Below are positions 24,502-42,154 of a stretch of DNA of 45,251 nucleotides, piece by piece. Source of the stretch: Escherichia phage K1E; the sequence record NC_007637.1; one strand, given 5' to 3'. The notes below the pieces were generated by a model, which searched no databases, was not told the DNA's origin, and saw only the letters and a list, made by a program, of their open reading frames with translations. The position numbers and the translations under genes were made by a program. The stretch's first letter is position 1. The number at the start of each line of letters is the position of its first letter.

Positions 24502-25704
24502 ATGTCTACGCCGAATAACCTGACCAACGTTGCAGTTTCCGCTTCCGGTGAGGTAGACAGCCTTCTCATTGAGAAATTCAATGGTAAGGTAAATGAGCAG
24601 TACCTGAAAGGTGAGAATATCATGTCTTACTTCGATGTTCAGACTGTAACTGGTACTAACACTGTAAGCAACAAGTACTTGGGTGAAACCGAGTTGCAGG
24701 TTCTAGCACCGGGCCAGTCTCCGGCTGCAACCTCCACTCAGGCCGATAAAAACCAGCTGGTAATTGATGCCACTGTTATCGCGCGTAACACCGTTGCACA
24801 CCTGCATGATGTACAGGGTGATATTGACAGCCTGAAACCGAAGCTGGCTACCAACCAAGCTAAGCAGCTTAAGAAGATGGAAGACGAGATGCTTATTCAG
24901 CAGATGCTGCTGGGCGGTATTGCCAACACTCAGGCCAAGCGCACAAATCCTCGTGTGAAAGGTCATGGCTTCTCTGTAAACGTAGAGGTCAATGAAGGAG
25001 AAGCACTGGTTAACCCACAGTATGTAATGGCAGCTGTAGAGTTTGCTCTGGAGCAGCAGCTTGAGCAGGAAGTTGATATCTCTGATGTAGCTATTCTGAT
25101 GCCATGGCGTTACTTCAACGTACTGCGTGACGCAGACCGTATTGTTGATAAGAGCTACACGATTAGCCAGTCCGGTGCTACTATCCAGGGCTTCGTACTG
25201 TCTTCCTACAATTGTCCGGTGATCCCGTCTAACCGCTTCCCTAAATATTCTCAGGGGCAGAAACATCACCTTTTGTCTAACGAAGATAACGGCTATCGTT
25301 ATGACCCGATTGCAGAAATGAACGGTGCTATCGCTGTTCTGTTCACTGCTGATGCATTGCTGGTTGGTCGCTCTATCGACGTAATTGGTGATATCTTCTA
25401 TGAGAAGAAAGAGAAGACCTACTACATCGACACCTTCATGTCAGAAGGTGCAATCCCTGACCGTTGGGAGGCTGTGTCGGTTGTTACTACCAAGCGTCAA
25501 AGCACTGGAGCAGTTGACTCTGGTAATGCTGCACAGCACACTCAGGTTCTGAACCGTGCACAGCGCAAAGCTGTCTACGTTAAGAATGCTGCCCCTGCAG
25601 GTGCTTTCGCTGCTGCTAGCTTGTCTGCTGAAGACTTGGTTGCTGCTGTACGTGCAGTGATGGCTAATGACATTAAGCCGACTGCAATGAAACCTACTGA
25701 GTAA
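24502..25704 (+). CDS. Major capsid protein (400 aa)
   Basis: Strong promoter and RBS (AAGGAGG), position after the scaffold gene, followed by a strong terminator. Confidence 0.8.
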   Translation: MSTPNNLTNVAVSASGEVDSLLIEKFNGKVNEQYLKGENIMSYFDVQTVTGTNTVSNKYLGETELQVLAPGQSPAATSTQADKNQLVIDATVIARNTVAHLHDVQGDIDSLKPKLATNQAKQLKKMEDEMLIQQMLLGGIANTQAKRTNPRVKGHGFSVNVEVNEGEALVNPQYVMAAVEFALEQQLEQEVDISDVAILMPWRYFNVLRDADRIVDKSYTISQSGATIQGFVLSSYNCPVIPSNRFPKYSQGQKHHLLSNEDNGYRYDPIAEMNGAIAVLFTADALLVGRSIDVIGDIFYEKKEKTYYIDTFMSEGAIPDRWEAVSVVTTKRQSTGAVDSGNAAQHTQVLNRAQRKAVYVKNAAPAGAFAAASLSAEDLVAAVRAVMANDIKPTAMKPTE

Positions 25705-37107: not shown

Positions 37108-37390
37108 ACATGCAGCTACAGAAGATGAGGTTGGCATCCTGCATGGTGCTATTACCAAAATCTTTAATAAGAAAGCACAGGCAATACTGGACACTATAGA
37201 AGAAGACCCAGATGCAGCACTGCATTTAGTCTCTGGTAAAGACATTGGAGCTATGTGTAAGTGGGTTCTTGATAATGGTATTACCGCTACACCTGCTGCA
37301 CAGCAGGAGGAGTCCAAGCTATCTAAGCGCCTCAAGGCTATCCGAGAGGCATCAAGTGGCAAGATTATTCAATTCACTAAGGAGGATTGA
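37091..37390 (+). CDS. Putative terminase small subunit (99 aa from GTG start)
   Basis: Track ORF starts at TTG 37046 inside the holin gene; proposed start is GTG 37091 with GGAGG 7 nt upstream; position matches T7 gene 18. Confidence 0.45.
   Translation: MSVHNKHAATEDEVGILHGAITKIFNKKAQAILDTIEEDPDAALHLVSGKDIGAMCKWVLDNGITATPAAQQEESKLSKRLKAIREASSGKIIQFTKED
37182..37204 (+). promoter_or_regulatory. Weak SP6-type promoter-like sequence inside coding sequence (+1 G at 37199)
   Basis: CAATACTGGACACTATAGAAGAA; perfect core with mismatches at -17 to -15. Confidence 0.4.
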
Positions 37391-38556
37391 TGGCTAAGGC
37401 AAGAGAATCACAAGCGGAGGCTCTTGCCAGATGGGAGATGCTACAGGAGTTACAGCAGACCTTTCCTTACACAGCGGAAGGTTTGCTTCTCTTTGCAGAC
37501 ACAGTTATTCATAACTTAATTGCAGGCAACCCTCATCTGATTCGTATGCAGGCTGATATCTTGAAGTTCCTATTCTACGGACACAAGTATCGCCTCATCG
37601 AAGCGCCTCGTGGTATCGCTAAGACAACACTATCAGCAATCTATACAGTATTCCGTATCATTCATGAACCGCATAAGCGTATCATGGTTGTATCCCAAAA
37701 CGCCAAGCGAGCAGAGGAAATCGCAGGTTGGGTAGTTAAAATCTTCCGTGGCCTAGACTTTCTTGAGTTTATGCTACCGGACATCTACGCAGGGGACCGT
37801 GCCTCAGTTAAGGCATTTGAGATTCATTACACCCTACGTGGCAGTGACAAGTCGCCTTCTGTGTCTTGTTACTCAATCGAAGCAGGTATGCAGGGTGCGC
37901 GTGCAGATATCATCCTAGCAGATGACGTTGAGTCAATGCAGAATGCTCGTACAGCGGCAGGACGTGCCTTGCTTGAGGAACTGACCAAGGAGTTTGAATC
38001 TATTAACCAGTTTGGTGATATTATCTACCTTGGTACTCCTCAGAACGTAAACTCTATCTACAATAACCTACCTGCTCGTGGTTACTCTGTTCGTATCTGG
38101 ACTGCACGTTATCCCTCAGTGGAGCAGGAGCAATGCTATGGTGACTTCCTTGCACCTATGATTGTGCAGGATATGAAGGACAACCCAGCACTTCGCTCAG
38201 GGTATGGCTTGGATGGCAATAGTGGTGCCCCTTGTGCACCTGAAATGTATGATGATGATGTGCTGATTGAGAAGGAAATCTCGCAGGGTGCGGCTAAGTT
38301 CCAGCTTCAGTTCATGCTTAACACTCGCATGATGGATGCTGACCGCTATCCGCTACGCCTGAACAACCTCATCTTCACTTCATTCGGTACAGAGGAAGTC
38401 CCTGTGATGCCTACGTGGAGCAATGATTCCATCAATATTATTGGCGATGCACCGAAGTATGGCAATAAGCCTACAGACTTCATGTATCGACCTGTGGCTC
38501 GCCCGTATGAATGGGGCGCTGTCACTCGTAAGATTATGTATATTGACCCTGCTGGT
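37390..38556 (+). CDS. Terminase large subunit, exon 1 (389 codons)
   Basis: ATG 37390 with AAGGAGG upstream; Walker A-like PRGIAKTT and Walker B ADIILADDVE; similarity to T7 gp19 stops at ...IDPAG, where an insertion begins. Confidence 0.85.
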
Positions 38557-39311
38557 AAACACCTCTGCCAGCGTAAAACCCTCTTAATTCGGTGGAACTC
38601 TCACTGAGACAATACCGAGCGAAGCCTGTTGCAATAACAGGAACGTGTAGAGACTAACTGTAAGGCCAAGCGGTCTGAAACAGAGGGAGGCGCAAGCCTA
38701 AGATATAGTCCGACCTACTAGGTGACTAGTAGAAGTTAAAGTAGCGAATTAACGTAACAATTGAAGGGAGTTAAATATGACAGAGCATAAAGTTTATCAT
38801 ATTCGTGTTGTTGGTGAAACTGATGTAATGCAAGGTTATATTGGTGTAACCTCCGATATTAAGAAGCGTATGAGAGAGCACAAGTGTGCAGGCCGTCTTT
38901 GTGATGGCCGCGAGTACGTTATCTTATTCACTGGTAGCAAAGAAGAGTGTTATGCACTAGAAGAGAAGCTACGCCCACATGACAACATGGGTTGGAATAA
39001 GGGTAAAGGTGGTTATCGCAAAGCAGGTAACATCGAGAAAGGTGAACGCATAAGTATTGCCACTGAAATCAAGAAAGGACAGCACTTGTCTGTTGCCACT
39101 GAGTTCAAGAAAGGCATGACACCTTACAACAAAGGTACTGGCAAAGATTACATATTCACTTCTCCAGATGGTGAAGAGTTTCTTGTAACTTGCATTACTG
39201 ACTTCTGTAAAGAGCACAACCTAACACCTCAGAATATGCGTAAGGTGGCACGTGGTTTACGTAAACACCACAAGGGTTGGCTCGCACGTCACGTTCAAAC
39301 CGGGAGGTAAG
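38557..39311 (+). mobile_element. Group I intron (candidate, self-splicing) carrying a homing endonuclease gene
   Basis: Conserved elements in canonical order: P AATTCGGTGGAA (38586..38597), Q AATACCGAGC (38611..38620), R GTAGAGACTAACTG (38647..38660), S AAGATATAGTCC (38700..38711). P1 pairing of exon GCTGGT (38551..38556) with GCCAGC (38567..38572). The 3' boundary is uncertain: G39311 or G39302. Confidence 0.75.
38777..39310 (+). CDS. GIY-YIG homing endonuclease (I-TevI-like, 177 aa) encoded within the intron
   Basis: AAGGGAG RBS; N-terminal KVYHIRVV...GYIGVTSDIKKRMREH (GIY-YIG with conserved Arg/Glu); central repeated GERISIATEIKKG / HLSVATEFKKG units; basic C-terminal DNA-binding-like region. 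Confidence 0.8.
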   Translation: MTEHKVYHIRVVGETDVMQGYIGVTSDIKKRMREHKCAGRLCDGREYVILFTGSKEECYALEEKLRPHDNMGWNKGKGGYRKAGNIEKGERISIATEIKKGQHLSVATEFKKGMTPYNKGTGKDYIFTSPDGEEFLVTCITDFCKEHNLTPQNMRKVARGLRKHHKGWLARHVQTGR

Positions 39312-40034
39312 AATGGGGATGAAACGGGTGTGGCTATCGTCTTCCTGCACGGCACATTCATTTATGTGTATCAGTGCTTTGGTGTGCCGGGAGGATACCG
39401 CGAATCGTCCCTGAATCGCATTGTGCAGGCCGCAAAGCAGGCAGGTGTTAAAGAGGTATTCATTGAAAAGAACTTTGGTCATGGCGCGTTTGAGGCCGTT
39501 ATAAAGCCATACTTTGAACGAGAGTGGCCTGTGACTCTGGAGGAAGATTACGCCACCGGACAGAAAGAGTTGCGTATCATTGAAACACTAGAGCCACTAA
39601 TGGCGGCCCACAGGCTCATCTTCAACGCAGAGATGGTCAAGTCTGATTTTGAGTCGGTACAGCACTATCCGCTTGAGCTACGCATGTCATACAGCCTTTT
39701 CAATCAAATGTCGAACATCACGATTGAGAAGAACAGCCTACGACACGATGACCGCTTAGACGCTCTGTATGGCGCTATACGGCAATTAACTTCTCAGATA
39801 GACTATGACGAGGTTACACGGATTAATCGCCTCAGAGCGCAGGAGATGCGCGATTACATCCATGCTATGAACACACCTCACCTCCGTAGGGCAATGCTCT
39901 ATGGAGATTATGGCACTGAGCGAAGAGTAACCAACACTTCCGTGGCTATGCAGCAAAGAGTATACGGTCAGAATTACAGGAGTAAATCGGCAAGCAGAAA
40001 TACACTTTCTGCAAGGATTTCAAGGACTTATTAA
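39312..40034 (+). CDS. Terminase large subunit, exon 2 (240 codons; may instead begin at 39303)
   Basis: NGDETGVAIVFLHG...EKNFGHGAFEAV...QKELRIIETLEPLMAAHRLIFN...HDDRLDAL parallels the C-terminal nuclease domain of T7 gp19. Confidence 0.85.
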   Translation, partial: NGDETGVAIVFLHGTFIYVYQCFGVPGGYRESSLNRIVQAAKQAGVKEVFIEKNFGHGAFEAVIKPYFEREWPVTLEEDYATGQKELRIIETLEPLMAAHRLIFNAEMVKSDFESVQHYPLELRMSYSLFNQMSNITIEKNSLRHDDRLDALYGAIRQLTSQIDYDEVTRINRLRAQEMRDYIHAMNTPHLRRAMLYGDYGTERRVTNTSVAMQQRVYGQNYRSKSASRNTLSARISRTY

Positions 40035-40055
40035 TTACCGGACACTATAGAAGGA
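40033..40055 (+). promoter_or_regulatory. SP6-type phage promoter (+1 G at 40050)
   Basis: AATTACCGGACACTATAGAAGGA; followed by an AT/purine-rich leader that shares AGGTTATATAGGTATT with the 6847..6986 region. Confidence 0.75.
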
Positions 40056-40198
40056 AGGCCCAGATAATAAGAGAAATAACAAGGATAATATAGGTTAACC
40101 TAGGTTATATAGGTATTCCTTAGTATGGGTGTACTCCTGTACACCCTATTCCTTACTTCCTTACTATACTTACATAATAGGAGAGAGAGAGAGAGAGA

Positions 40199-40477
40199 AT
40201 GTCTAATAGTTATAGTACACAACCTCTTACAGGTAAGTCTGCTCGTAAGCAGATACAACCTGTTAGTGAAGCCCTTATGCTTCCTGTAGTTTACGAGGAC
40301 ACTGTTGAGAAGAAAGGTGATGTTATTAATGATGCCACCAAATCAGGTAAGCAGAAAGGGGCCATGGTGTGTCTTGATACACATGATAACCTGGTTATTG
40401 CTATCGCAGTTGATGGCAAAGAAGATTCCAATTGGTTGACAGCTAATAAAGCGGTCACTACTATTACCCCAGCTTAA
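40199..40477 (+). CDS. Hypothetical protein (92 aa), paralog of the next gene
   Basis: ATG 40199 preceded by AGGA plus a (GA)9 run; shares SGKQKGAMV and overall layout with the 40490 product. Confidence 0.55.
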   Translation: MSNSYSTQPLTGKSARKQIQPVSEALMLPVVYEDTVEKKGDVINDATKSGKQKGAMVCLDTHDNLVIAIAVDGKEDSNWLTANKAVTTITPA

Positions 40478-40489
40478 GAGGAGAGTTAC

Positions 40490-40777
40490 ATGTCTAAATA
40501 TGGAACCGCAGGTACTGTTACTGGTCAGGCTTTTCGAGTAAAAACTGTACAAACCACTGCAACGGCAATCCCTTTGCCTATTGTTGCTGAAGCAGACCTT
40601 AAGAAGAAAGATCATCCTATCAACATTAAACACCTCTCTGGTAAACAGAAAGGTGCCATGGTTGCTGTAGAGAAAACAGACCAATCCTTGTACATCGCTA
40701 TTGCACGTGGGAGTGAACCCACCGACAAGTGGGATGCAACTACTATGGAGTTGGACCCTGTAACACCTGCGGCTTAA
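40490..40777 (+). CDS. Hypothetical protein (95 aa), paralog of the previous gene
   Basis: AGGAGAG RBS; shared motifs LSGKQKGAMVAV and IAIA. Confidence 0.55.
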   Translation: MSKYGTAGTVTGQAFRVKTVQTTATAIPLPIVAEADLKKKDHPINIKHLSGKQKGAMVAVEKTDQSLYIAIARGSEPTDKWDATTMELDPVTPAA

Positions 40778-40797
40778 TTGTAAAGACGAGGTCAATA

Positions 40798-41142
40798 GTG
40801 CTTAACAAACACTTCAAGCGCCGTGAGTTCGCTTGCCGTTGTGGGTGCGGTACATCCACAGTAGATGCTGAGTTACTACAGGTAGTCACAGATGTACGTG
40901 AGCACTTTGGTGCTCCTGTAGTTATTACTTCTGGACACCGCTGTGCTAAGCACAATGCTAATGTGGGAGGTGCTAAGAACTCCATGCATCTTACTGGTAA
41001 GGCTGCTGACATTAAGGTACAAGGTATTACACCTTACCGTGTATGGTCCTATCTAACAGCACGCTACCCCAATAAATATGGCATTGGGTCTTATCCTAAT
41101 TTCACCCACATTGATGTAAGAGAGGGATGTGCACGATGGTAA
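40798..41142 (+). CDS. Endolysin, zinc peptidase M15-like (114 aa from GTG start)
   Basis: VVITSGHRCAKHNANVGGAKNSMHLTGKAADI...FTHIDV fits the M15 zinc-binding pattern. Track ORF starts at GTG 40729 inside the upstream gene; proposed start is GTG 40798 with GAGG upstream. Confidence 0.6.
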   Translation: MLNKHFKRREFACRCGCGTSTVDAELLQVVTDVREHFGAPVVITSGHRCAKHNANVGGAKNSMHLTGKAADIKVQGITPYRVWSYLTARYPNKYGIGSYPNFTHIDVREGCARW

Positions 41143-41250: not shown

Positions 41251-41400
41251 ATGAAAAAGCTGTTTAAGTCTAAGAAAGTGGTAGGTGCACTGGTTGCACT
41301 AGTGATTGCTCTTGTTTCTGTAGGTCTTGGCGTAGACCTAGGTGAAGGTGCGGAAGGTTCCGTCACTGACGTGGTATGCCAAGTAATCACCTGTGAATAA
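41251..41400 (+). CDS. Hypothetical small membrane protein (49 aa); lysis-cassette component
   Basis: ATG 41251 with GGGAG upstream; basic N-terminus followed by a hydrophobic segment; found by manual translation. Confidence 0.35.
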   Translation: MKKLFKSKKVVGALVALVIALVSVGLGVDLGEGAEGSVTDVVCQVITCE

Positions 41401-41614
41401 GGTGCTAGAGGTGGTAGCAGGTCTTATTGGCCTGCTGCTTGCCGCTAAGAAGAAGAAGGAAGAGAAGGAGGCACAAAGTGAGGCGAATCATGCTAGCGAC
41501 AATCCTGCTGATTGGTTCACTGATCACTTCAGGGTGTCAGACGGCGTTACCAGAGAATCCAAAGGTGAAGCCTCTGAAGCCGACGCTTACGGCAGTCTAC
41601 GAGGTGGACGATAA
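41393..41614 (+). CDS. Putative i-spanin (Rz-like, 73 aa); start uncertain
   Basis: GTG start; N-terminal transmembrane segment VLEVVAGLIGLLLAA followed by a charged region; overlaps the o-spanin candidate in another frame. Confidence 0.35.
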   Translation: MNKVLEVVAGLIGLLLAAKKKKEEKEAQSEANHASDNPADWFTDHFRVSDGVTRESKGEASEADAYGSLRGGR

Positions 41615-41687
41615 AGTCTGCTTCAGTAAGCCTGACGCTACAAAATTAGGTCTGTACATTCTCTCGCTAGAACGCGGGTATAATTAA
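41490..41687 (+). CDS. Putative o-spanin (Rz1-like lipoprotein, 65 aa)
   Basis: Track ORF trimmed to ATG 41490; signal peptide ending ...LITSGC (lipobox-like) followed by Pro-rich PENPKVKPLKP; overlaps the i-spanin candidate. Confidence 0.5.
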   Translation: MLATILLIGSLITSGCQTALPENPKVKPLKPTLTAVYEVDDKVCFSKPDATKLGLYILSLERGYN

Positions 41688-41716: not shown

Positions 41717-41739
41717 ATTTACTGGACACTATAGAAGAG
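41717..41739 (+). promoter_or_regulatory. SP6-type phage promoter upstream of the tailspike region (+1 G at 41734)
   Basis: ATTTACTGGACACTATAGAAGAG; perfect core. Confidence 0.8.
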
Positions 41740-41818
41740 ATAAGATAGTGCCGTTCTTTTGAGCGGCCTATTACTAGCCAATCTTCATAGGGAGGGTTGG
41801 GAAGTAATAGGAGAGTAT

Positions 41819-42154
41819 ATGGCTAAGTTAACTAAACCCAAGACAACGGGCTTACTACATAGAGATACTGTACTAGCTACCTTATTAGATAATTTACTAT
41901 CTAAAAGGCGTGTTACATTTGAAGGTGTAGTTCCAAGTGAAGATACTAAAATTGAGATAGAAGTACCTACAGCATGGGATTTAGATTCTTCGTGGGCATC
42001 ACTTGTATCATTAAGTACACCTACACTTTGTACAGCTTGGATTACTAAAGTGTCAGATACTAGATTAGAAGTACATGTGTTCCATACAGCACAAGTTGAA
42101 ATAGACATAGATGTAGATGTTTACATTCTAGGTAAACACATTGTCAGTGCGTAA
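41819..42154 (+). CDS. Hypothetical protein (111 aa) upstream of the tailspike gene
   Basis: Track ORF starts at an upstream ATG (41759); ATG 41819 has AGGAGA upstream; AT-rich composition. Confidence 0.45.
   Translation: MAKLTKPKTTGLLHRDTVLATLLDNLLSKRRVTFEGVVPSEDTKIEIEVPTAWDLDSSWASLVSLSTPTLCTAWITKVSDTRLEVHVFHTAQVEIDIDVDVYILGKHIVSA

Follow-up and report, generated by a model that had tools for sequence, protein, structure and literature searches.

Tandem paralogous small proteins between the terminase and endolysin genes as candidate accessory capsid proteins of SP6-like phages

What is the role of the pair of small genes that separates terminase from endolysin in K1E-like phages? We addressed this question in a 45,251-base stretch of DNA (record NC_007637.1; "the window" below always means this whole stretch), which is the complete genome of a K1E-like coliphage (Autographiviridae, Molineuxvirinae, Vectrevirus) and carries the two genes, here called gp41 and gp42, in tandem. 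A first-pass annotation of the window had described their products as paralogs, abundant and possibly virion-associated or lysis-related. We find that the paralogy is genuine and that a lysis role is poorly compatible with the proteins, and we consider it probable, by analogy with annotated relatives and known decoration proteins, that gp41 and gp42 are trimer-forming accessory ("minor capsid" or decoration) proteins of the capsid exterior, belonging to a module that is reduced to two genes in this phage.

Two diverged copies of one domain

The two open reading frames (ORFs) are exactly as first described, and pairwise BLASTP aligns their products with 35 identities over 94 positions (37%; 54% positives, E 1e-14). 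The motif SGKQKGAMV is identical in both proteins and IAIA is common to both, as the first-pass annotation had pointed out along with a Thr/Pro-rich tail; both C-termini read (T/V)TPA(A). At the DNA level, the 26-nt segment encoding the motif is repeated 294 nt apart at 88% identity. The profile search proposed there as a check places both proteins in phrog_2725 (E 5e-41 for gp41 and 1e-46 for gp42) and in one family hidden Markov model (HMM; E 1e-30 and 2e-34). Their paralogy is confirmed, well beyond chance: gp41 and gp42 are true, diverged duplicates. Across six frames of the window, the family HMM finds these two genes only, with neither a third copy of the domain nor a copy in the early region.

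Direct orthologs of the pair, with no difference of substance, are K1E gp41/gp42, K1-5 gene 42 and SP6 gp42/gp43, to which SP6 adds a truncated third copy. The gp41 protein is identical to that of K1E (proportion of nonsynonymous differences, pN, of 0) and orthologous to Kp7_45 of Klebsiella phage Kp7 (46% identity, E 9e-17), while gp42 is orthologous to K1E gp42, to SP6 gp43 (53% identity to SP6 gene 43) and to Kp7_46 (50% identity, E 5e-19). Over positions 40000-40900, nucleotide identity is 98.3% to Escherichia phage vB_EcoP_B and 93.7% to K1E. Because the ratio of nonsynonymous to synonymous substitution rates (dN/dS) of both genes against their relatives is 0.18-0.33, we conclude that both are under purifying selection.

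The location is equally conserved. In the window, gp41 and gp42 come directly after the terminase large-subunit gene, which has its stop codon at 40032-40034, in agreement with their first description. Wherever the flank is visible, in the window and in SP6-like podophages, the module follows a T7-type terminase large subunit and precedes the endolysin gene, which is the next gene after the module in all relatives. The family is present in ~190 phage records of the SP6-like lineage, a spread that matches that of this type of capsid protein (214 records).

Family architecture and predicted fold

A profile built from both paralogs and searched against 1.84 billion representative proteins returned 201 family members at a cut-off of E<=0.001; architectures were counted in the best 150 representatives, re-scored with a broader profile. 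The domain spans ~85 amino acids (aa) and is marked by an N-x4-SGK-x-G motif, a conserved Trp and a C-terminal TPA, all of which gp41 and gp42 carry. A single domain of ~90 aa is the commonest form (88/150), and another 17 representatives consist of one domain with a C-terminal extension. Three tandem domains occur in 36, three of these with an extra C-terminal extension of ~130 aa. In six, two scored domains are followed by a stretch of ~97 aa that probably represents a degenerate third; two more consist of two domains and nothing else, and none of the 150 has four or more domains per chain. P0301, a protein with eight Big_7 repeats, was a spurious match of the first profile and the only false one among the 150.

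Domains within one fused protein are 26-28% identical to each other, and the nearest neighbour of a fused domain holds the same position in 26 of the 36 chains for T1, 29 for T2 and 22 for T3. Judged from these sequence relationships, the three positions are specific and not interchangeable. The fused genes lie on short contigs, with a terminase gene seen upstream at a single locus (L006), and no fused form was found in cultured phages.

Among phages with separate genes, the window, K1E and vB_EcoP_B carry two plain genes, and K1-5 likewise has two plain copies only. Three tandem genes are found in Pectobacterium phage PP1, where all are plain; in the close relative Escherichia phage SHAK7704, where two plain genes precede a 229-aa third gene with a 150-aa extension; in Kp7, as at metagenomic locus L005, where the third gene encodes 178 aa ending in an immunoglobulin (Ig) domain; and in SP6, where two full copies are followed by a truncated third (gp44) and then by a 55-aa ORF (gp45). 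Other metagenomic loci hold a fused triple alone, a fused triple and then an extended single copy, or two fused triples. The third paralog with its extension is present at full length in 31 phage records. In three-copy relatives the third paralog sits between gp42 and the endolysin gene, and in the window gp42 leads to the endolysin gene with no gene between them. Because relatives carry three parts, we regard the pair in the window as the reduced two-gene state of a three-part module.

Several individual loci deserve separate mention. In SP6 (L015, 3298-3733), gp44 (81 aa) corresponds to the first two thirds of the domain and gp45 resembles the end of the SHAK7704 extension, so that the two together probably represent a disrupted third copy. 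P0097, a 95-aa protein found on two contigs (L016, 1632-1919; L017, 1023-1310), joins a gp41-type N-terminal half to a gp42-type C-terminal half at SGKQKGAMV. Either a natural unequal crossover that left the module with a single gene or an error of assembly may account for it, and each contig stops immediately behind the gene. A family match to an early gene of SHAK7704 proved to be an artefact of that record's feature coordinates, which are out of register with the sequence. This record (OR594181, Escherichia phage vB_EcoM_SHAK7704; L007) is marked UNVERIFIED, its annotated frames are riddled with stop codons, and it is filed as Kayfunavirus with genes that are Vectrevirus-like.

AlphaFold2 models gp42 with a predicted local distance difference test (pLDDT) score of 83; a small alpha/beta core (residues 31-85) follows an N-terminal arm, some 30 residues long, that is predicted with low confidence. 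The secondary structure predicted for the family consists of strands and two short helices. The fused three-domain form is predicted confidently, inter-domain arms included (pLDDT 90.3; predicted template modelling score, pTM, 0.86), and the model implies a compact pseudo-trimer. Together with the frequency of three-domain fusions and the complete lack of chains with more than three domains, the pTM of 0.86 would support a threefold unit. Searches of PDB sequences with two profiles and with Kp7_46 found no solved homolog, and no PDB fold matches the family.

A capsid role and its alternatives

The case for a place on the particle surface starts from the C-terminal extensions of the 17 single-domain and three triple-domain representatives, which include Ig domains, Sf6-type knobs and others. 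An Ig domain (I-set/Ig_3) is fused to the family domain in P0261 and Kp7_47, and a tail-needle knob of the Sf6 type (PF16532) in P0264 (E 1.7e-30); other extensions measure 150-360 aa. By analogy, Ig and knob extensions are of a kind typical of particle surfaces. The Ig domain of Kp7_47 in particular matches that of the T5 head-decoration protein pb10 (8zvi_a, E 6e-17; 5lxk, E 2.8e-16).

Kp7 connects the family to the capsid by name. Its gp45, gp46 and gp47 (ON148527), which lie between terminase and endolysin and belong to the family by HMM (E 3e-25, 4e-31 and 5e-22), bear the names "minor capsid protein" (gp45 and gp46) and "minor capsid protein with Ig-domain" (gp47), given by depositors who also solved this virion. 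The capsid protein of the window has a single PDB match, the Kp7 major capsid protein 7Y3T (E 9.5e-175 over 360 aa). Among external evidence, the Kp7 annotation lends the strongest support to a capsid role, by analogy between phages whose capsid proteins are very similar. Kp7_45 pairs with gp41 and Kp7_46 with gp42; Kp7 differs in having three genes, the third with a pb10-like Ig domain, whereas the window has two plain copies only. The proposal that the proteins are virion-associated finds indirect support in the Ig-like and knob fusions of relatives and in this annotation.

On these grounds we propose that gp41 and gp42 would be expressed late, along with the lysis genes, from a phage promoter of their own, and that their soluble ~10-kDa products would assemble into three-subunit units through their cores and N-terminal arms. 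In each copy, a basic arm at the N-terminus (TG-x3-R/K) would be joined to a small alpha/beta core bearing N-x4-SGK-x-G, and the units would sit on the outer face of the T=7 capsid, their C-termini (TPA) facing outward. The module usually consists either of three genes in tandem, of which the third encodes a display domain, or of one gene for a fused chain with three domains. In relatives, an adhesion-type domain (Ig-like, Sf6-type knob or others) would sit on one of the subunits or close the fusion. In the window phage plain units alone would remain, presumably attached to the capsid of the virion as homo- or heterotrimers; they may have a stabilising or adhesive role, for instance in shell stability, or be nearly neutral.

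Known capsid accessories offer several parallels. Lambda gpD, phage L Dec and phi29 gp8.5 are small trimer-forming capsid accessory proteins, in some cases bearing N-terminal arms or a fibre or knob at the distal end, and in this they resemble the role proposed for gp41 and gp42; neither the gpD fold nor the Pfam family of the lambda gpD/SHP-like class was found in the two proteins. The alpha-claw/alpha-paw pairs of other Autographiviridae (PhiM1 gp44/gp43, Buco gp47/gp48 and, in the phiKMV-like Ar-KM, gp55/gp54) are likewise adjacent small paralogs, with a common capsid-binding N-terminal core and a variable outward C-terminal domain on one paralog, a division that recalls the plain and extended copies of the present family. 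The claw and paw proteins form helix-turn-helix homodimers on twofold axes, whereas predictions for the gp41-gp42 family give mostly beta structure and short helices, and its architecture points to a threefold logic; the two groups therefore share a logic and differ in fold and symmetry. In its predicted secondary structure, the family lacks the helix-turn-helix, homodimeric four-helix-bundle core of the PhiM1, Ar-KM, HRP29 and Buco type, with no sequence or fold match in the PDB. T5 pb10 is laid out like the third paralog of relatives (Kp7_47, P0261), with a small N-terminal anchor and then a C-terminal Ig-like domain, but the pb10 anchor is unrelated, with no match to residues 1-85 of Kp7_47, and the window genes have no Ig domain. 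The pb10 protein is reported to bind hexamer centres as a monomer (PMC5292684). A "head fiber" lead from phiAS7 was dropped, as that phage belongs to a different subfamily.

Several observations weigh against a capsid-exterior role. The Kp7 designation is a depositors' label. No PDB entry contains a modelled chain of the family, the Kp7 deposits for capsid (7Y3T), tail (7Y22) and fibres (7Y5S and, according to its title, 7XYC) included; a cement protein that is ordered and at full occupancy would usually appear in such models, and any copies on the particle are therefore probably flexible, present in sub-stoichiometric amounts or averaged out. The literature searched, which did not extend to the key SP6, K1E and Kp7 papers, yielded no virion proteomics, cryo-electron microscopy or genetics on the family in SP6-like phages. 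The third copy is missing in the window and degraded in SP6 (gp44 and gp45), and that copy, at least, is therefore dispensable. The pseudo-trimer is read from pTM and pLDDT values, and locus L012 holds a fused triple plus a fourth, extension-bearing copy, so that three domains per unit does not fix its composition. Finally, a dedicated promoter is no proof of abundance.

Beyond the capsid-exterior role as such, we entertain a more specific picture, which we hold tentatively and rate as somewhat short of an even prospect. An undescribed fold would here be used by three non-equivalent paralogs, or by one fused chain, to build a hetero- or pseudo-trimer, placed on the SP6-type T=7 shell as a socket for exchangeable adhesion domains. 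With their two genes, K1E-like phages would have a pared-down version that is still able to assemble, for instance into a trimer of 2:1 composition.

The best-surviving alternative holds that gp41 and gp42 are non-structural late proteins, missing from the mature particle, that might assist assembly or packaging or adjust when lysis occurs. That the genes lie between those for terminase and endolysin, and share a transcription unit with the lysis genes, fits such a role, as do the Kp7 capsid and tail deposits without a family chain and the failure to find proteomic evidence for the family in the literature searched. We nevertheless judge it unlikely. The highest Kyte-Doolittle 19-residue means are 1.09 (gp41) and 0.83 (gp42) and the grand average of hydropathy (GRAVY) is negative; neither protein has a transmembrane segment or signal sequence, which marks both as predicted soluble proteins, and neither matches a lysis family or, with PADLOC, a defence or anti-defence system. 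The Ig-like and knob fusions, like the pb10-type layout of the third paralog, are typical features of proteins on the particle surface, and the Kp7 annotation names the capsid. The suggestion of the first-pass annotation that the pair might be lysis-related finds no support in the same evidence, since the proteins have no hydrophobic segment and no lysis-family match, and Ig and knob fusions are unlike a cytoplasmic or membrane lysis factor.

A position on the tail or neck, where the proteins would form a trimeric anchor for accessory fibres or whiskers at the adaptor, nozzle or portal region, shares with the capsid-exterior reading the assumption of virion association. It is weakened by the tail structure and the annotation of Kp7, which, by extension to the window, suggest that the family is not obviously part of the ordered tail, and we regard it as quite improbable.

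There is practically no chance that the proteins are acetyl-CoA acetyltransferases (thiolases), a reading that has nothing but the label itself in its favour and is refuted by protein size, by Pfam and NCBIfam, by a cysteine-free gp42 and by an unrelated predicted fold. The hypothetical proteins K1E gp41/gp42, K1-5 gene 42 and SP6 gp42/gp43 have been widely renamed in this way (RefSeq, PHROG 2725, many GenBank records), and the gene table of UAB_Phi78 carries the label with supporting evidence not given (PMC4837284). At 92 and 95 aa, gp41 and gp42 compare with ~390 aa for the two-domain thiolase fold (Pfam Thiolase_N and Thiolase_C). They have no Pfam family at E<=1, and no NCBIfam thiolase model, the sole NCBIfam output being a GroES match for gp41 that does not rise above chance (E 0.048; 13.8 bits, with the cut-off at 122). 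The thiolase set of catalytic cysteines and histidine is lacking: gp41 has one cysteine and gp42 none, which makes the catalytic cysteines impossible in gp42. The predicted small alpha/beta domain has no thiolase match.

The locus and its wider meaning

The features of the module are collected in Table 1. The strong phage promoter and ribosome-binding sites proposed in the first-pass annotation are borne out by an exact 13-nt promoter core, by AGGAG with a GA repeat before gp41 and by GAGGAG before gp42; taken together, they would be consistent with abundant products.

Table 1. Features of the gp41-gp42 module and the following gene, in window coordinates
Feature	Position	Strand	Details
SP6/K1E-type phage RNA polymerase promoter	40033..40055	+	core GACACTATAGAAG exact at 40041-40053; putative +1 near 40050
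RNA hairpin in the 5' leader, promoter-gp41 interval	40127..40146	+	GGGTGTAC-TCCT-GTACACCC, 8-bp stem
gp41 ribosome-binding region	40179..40198	+	AGGAG, then (GA)n tract running into ATG
gp41-type paralog	40199..40477	+	92 aa, ATG start, 9.8 kDa, isoelectric point (pI) 5.7; first gene of module
gp42 Shine-Dalgarno GAGGAG	40478..40483	+	6 nt upstream of ATG
gp42-type paralog	40490..40777	+	95 aa, ATG start, 10.1 kDa, pI 9.0; second gene of module
M15 peptidase endolysin (context only)	40798..41142	+	114 aa, GTG start; Peptidase_M15_3 E 1e-32

The promoter core occurs in the window as eight exact and 13 near matches (<=2 mismatches), all on the + strand, against a chance expectation of 1.35, and another exact copy lies just upstream of the major capsid gene. 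The promoter before gp41, whose core comes shortly behind the terminase stop codon, is kept in vB_EcoP_B, K1E, SHAK7704 and PP1; its 23-nt limits are those we take from the published SP6 promoter consensus. The leader hairpin retains its stem in SHAK7704 through two compensatory pair changes (G-C to A-T and T-A to G-C), and PP1 has a different stem, GGGAC/GTCCC. It is probably an RNase III or mRNA-stabilising element, and is unlikely to be a terminator because no U-run follows. The (GA)n tract varies in length among near-identical relatives, with the ATG directly after AGGAGAGAGA in vB_EcoP_B, six bases further on in K1E and ten in the window, and this variation could tune gp41 translation.

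Around the module the genes follow their customary order: terminase small and large subunits, the two small ORFs, the M15 endolysin (its GTG start set from the vB_EcoP_B annotation), small membrane and spanin ORFs, a 131-aa ORF and an 811-aa endosialidase tailspike. Candidate holin and spanin ORFs lie at 41251-41687. The 131-aa ORF (41759-42154), just upstream of the endosialidase gene, has its own exact phage promoter at 41725-41737 and no Pfam match. The terminase large-subunit gene (37387-40034) is interrupted by a ~745-nt insert that is missing in vB_EcoP_B, K1E and SHAK7704 and that splits a conserved motif of the terminase nuclease domain between IDPAG and GGKNGDETG. The insert carries a group I intron at 38525-38732 (Rfam RF00028, 63.6 bits against a gathering score of 50, E 2.5e-15) and a 177-aa ORF at 38777-39310 with weak GIY-YIG and NUMOD-like matches. 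The major capsid ORF (24502-25704) encodes 400 aa and aligns to the 363-aa Kp7 capsid protein over residues 1-361 only, leaving ~39 extra C-terminal residues.

These genes have already been catalogued as ORFs, and one group has labelled orthologs as minor capsid proteins. What appears to be undescribed is the family-level picture of a domain without a solved or matching fold, arranged as two to three paralogous genes or as a position-specific three-domain chain and serving as a socket for variable display domains. The findings are useful for annotation and for phage engineering, and will not surprise specialists. The acetyl-CoA acetyltransferase label, which has spread through RefSeq, PHROGs and dozens of genomes, is unfounded and due for replacement. 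Given that K1E, K1-5 and SP6-like phages serve as chassis for therapy and engineering, a small, dispensable, surface-exposed capsid module that tolerates C-terminal fusions would, if this reading is true, be a natural display site, and gp41 and gp42 could influence how stable the particle is or how it adheres, effects that have been reported for the decoration proteins pb10 and Hoc. If the virion reading is true, the alternation between three genes and one three-domain chain would also be a clear example of how the subunits of a virion protein fuse and its paralogs specialise.
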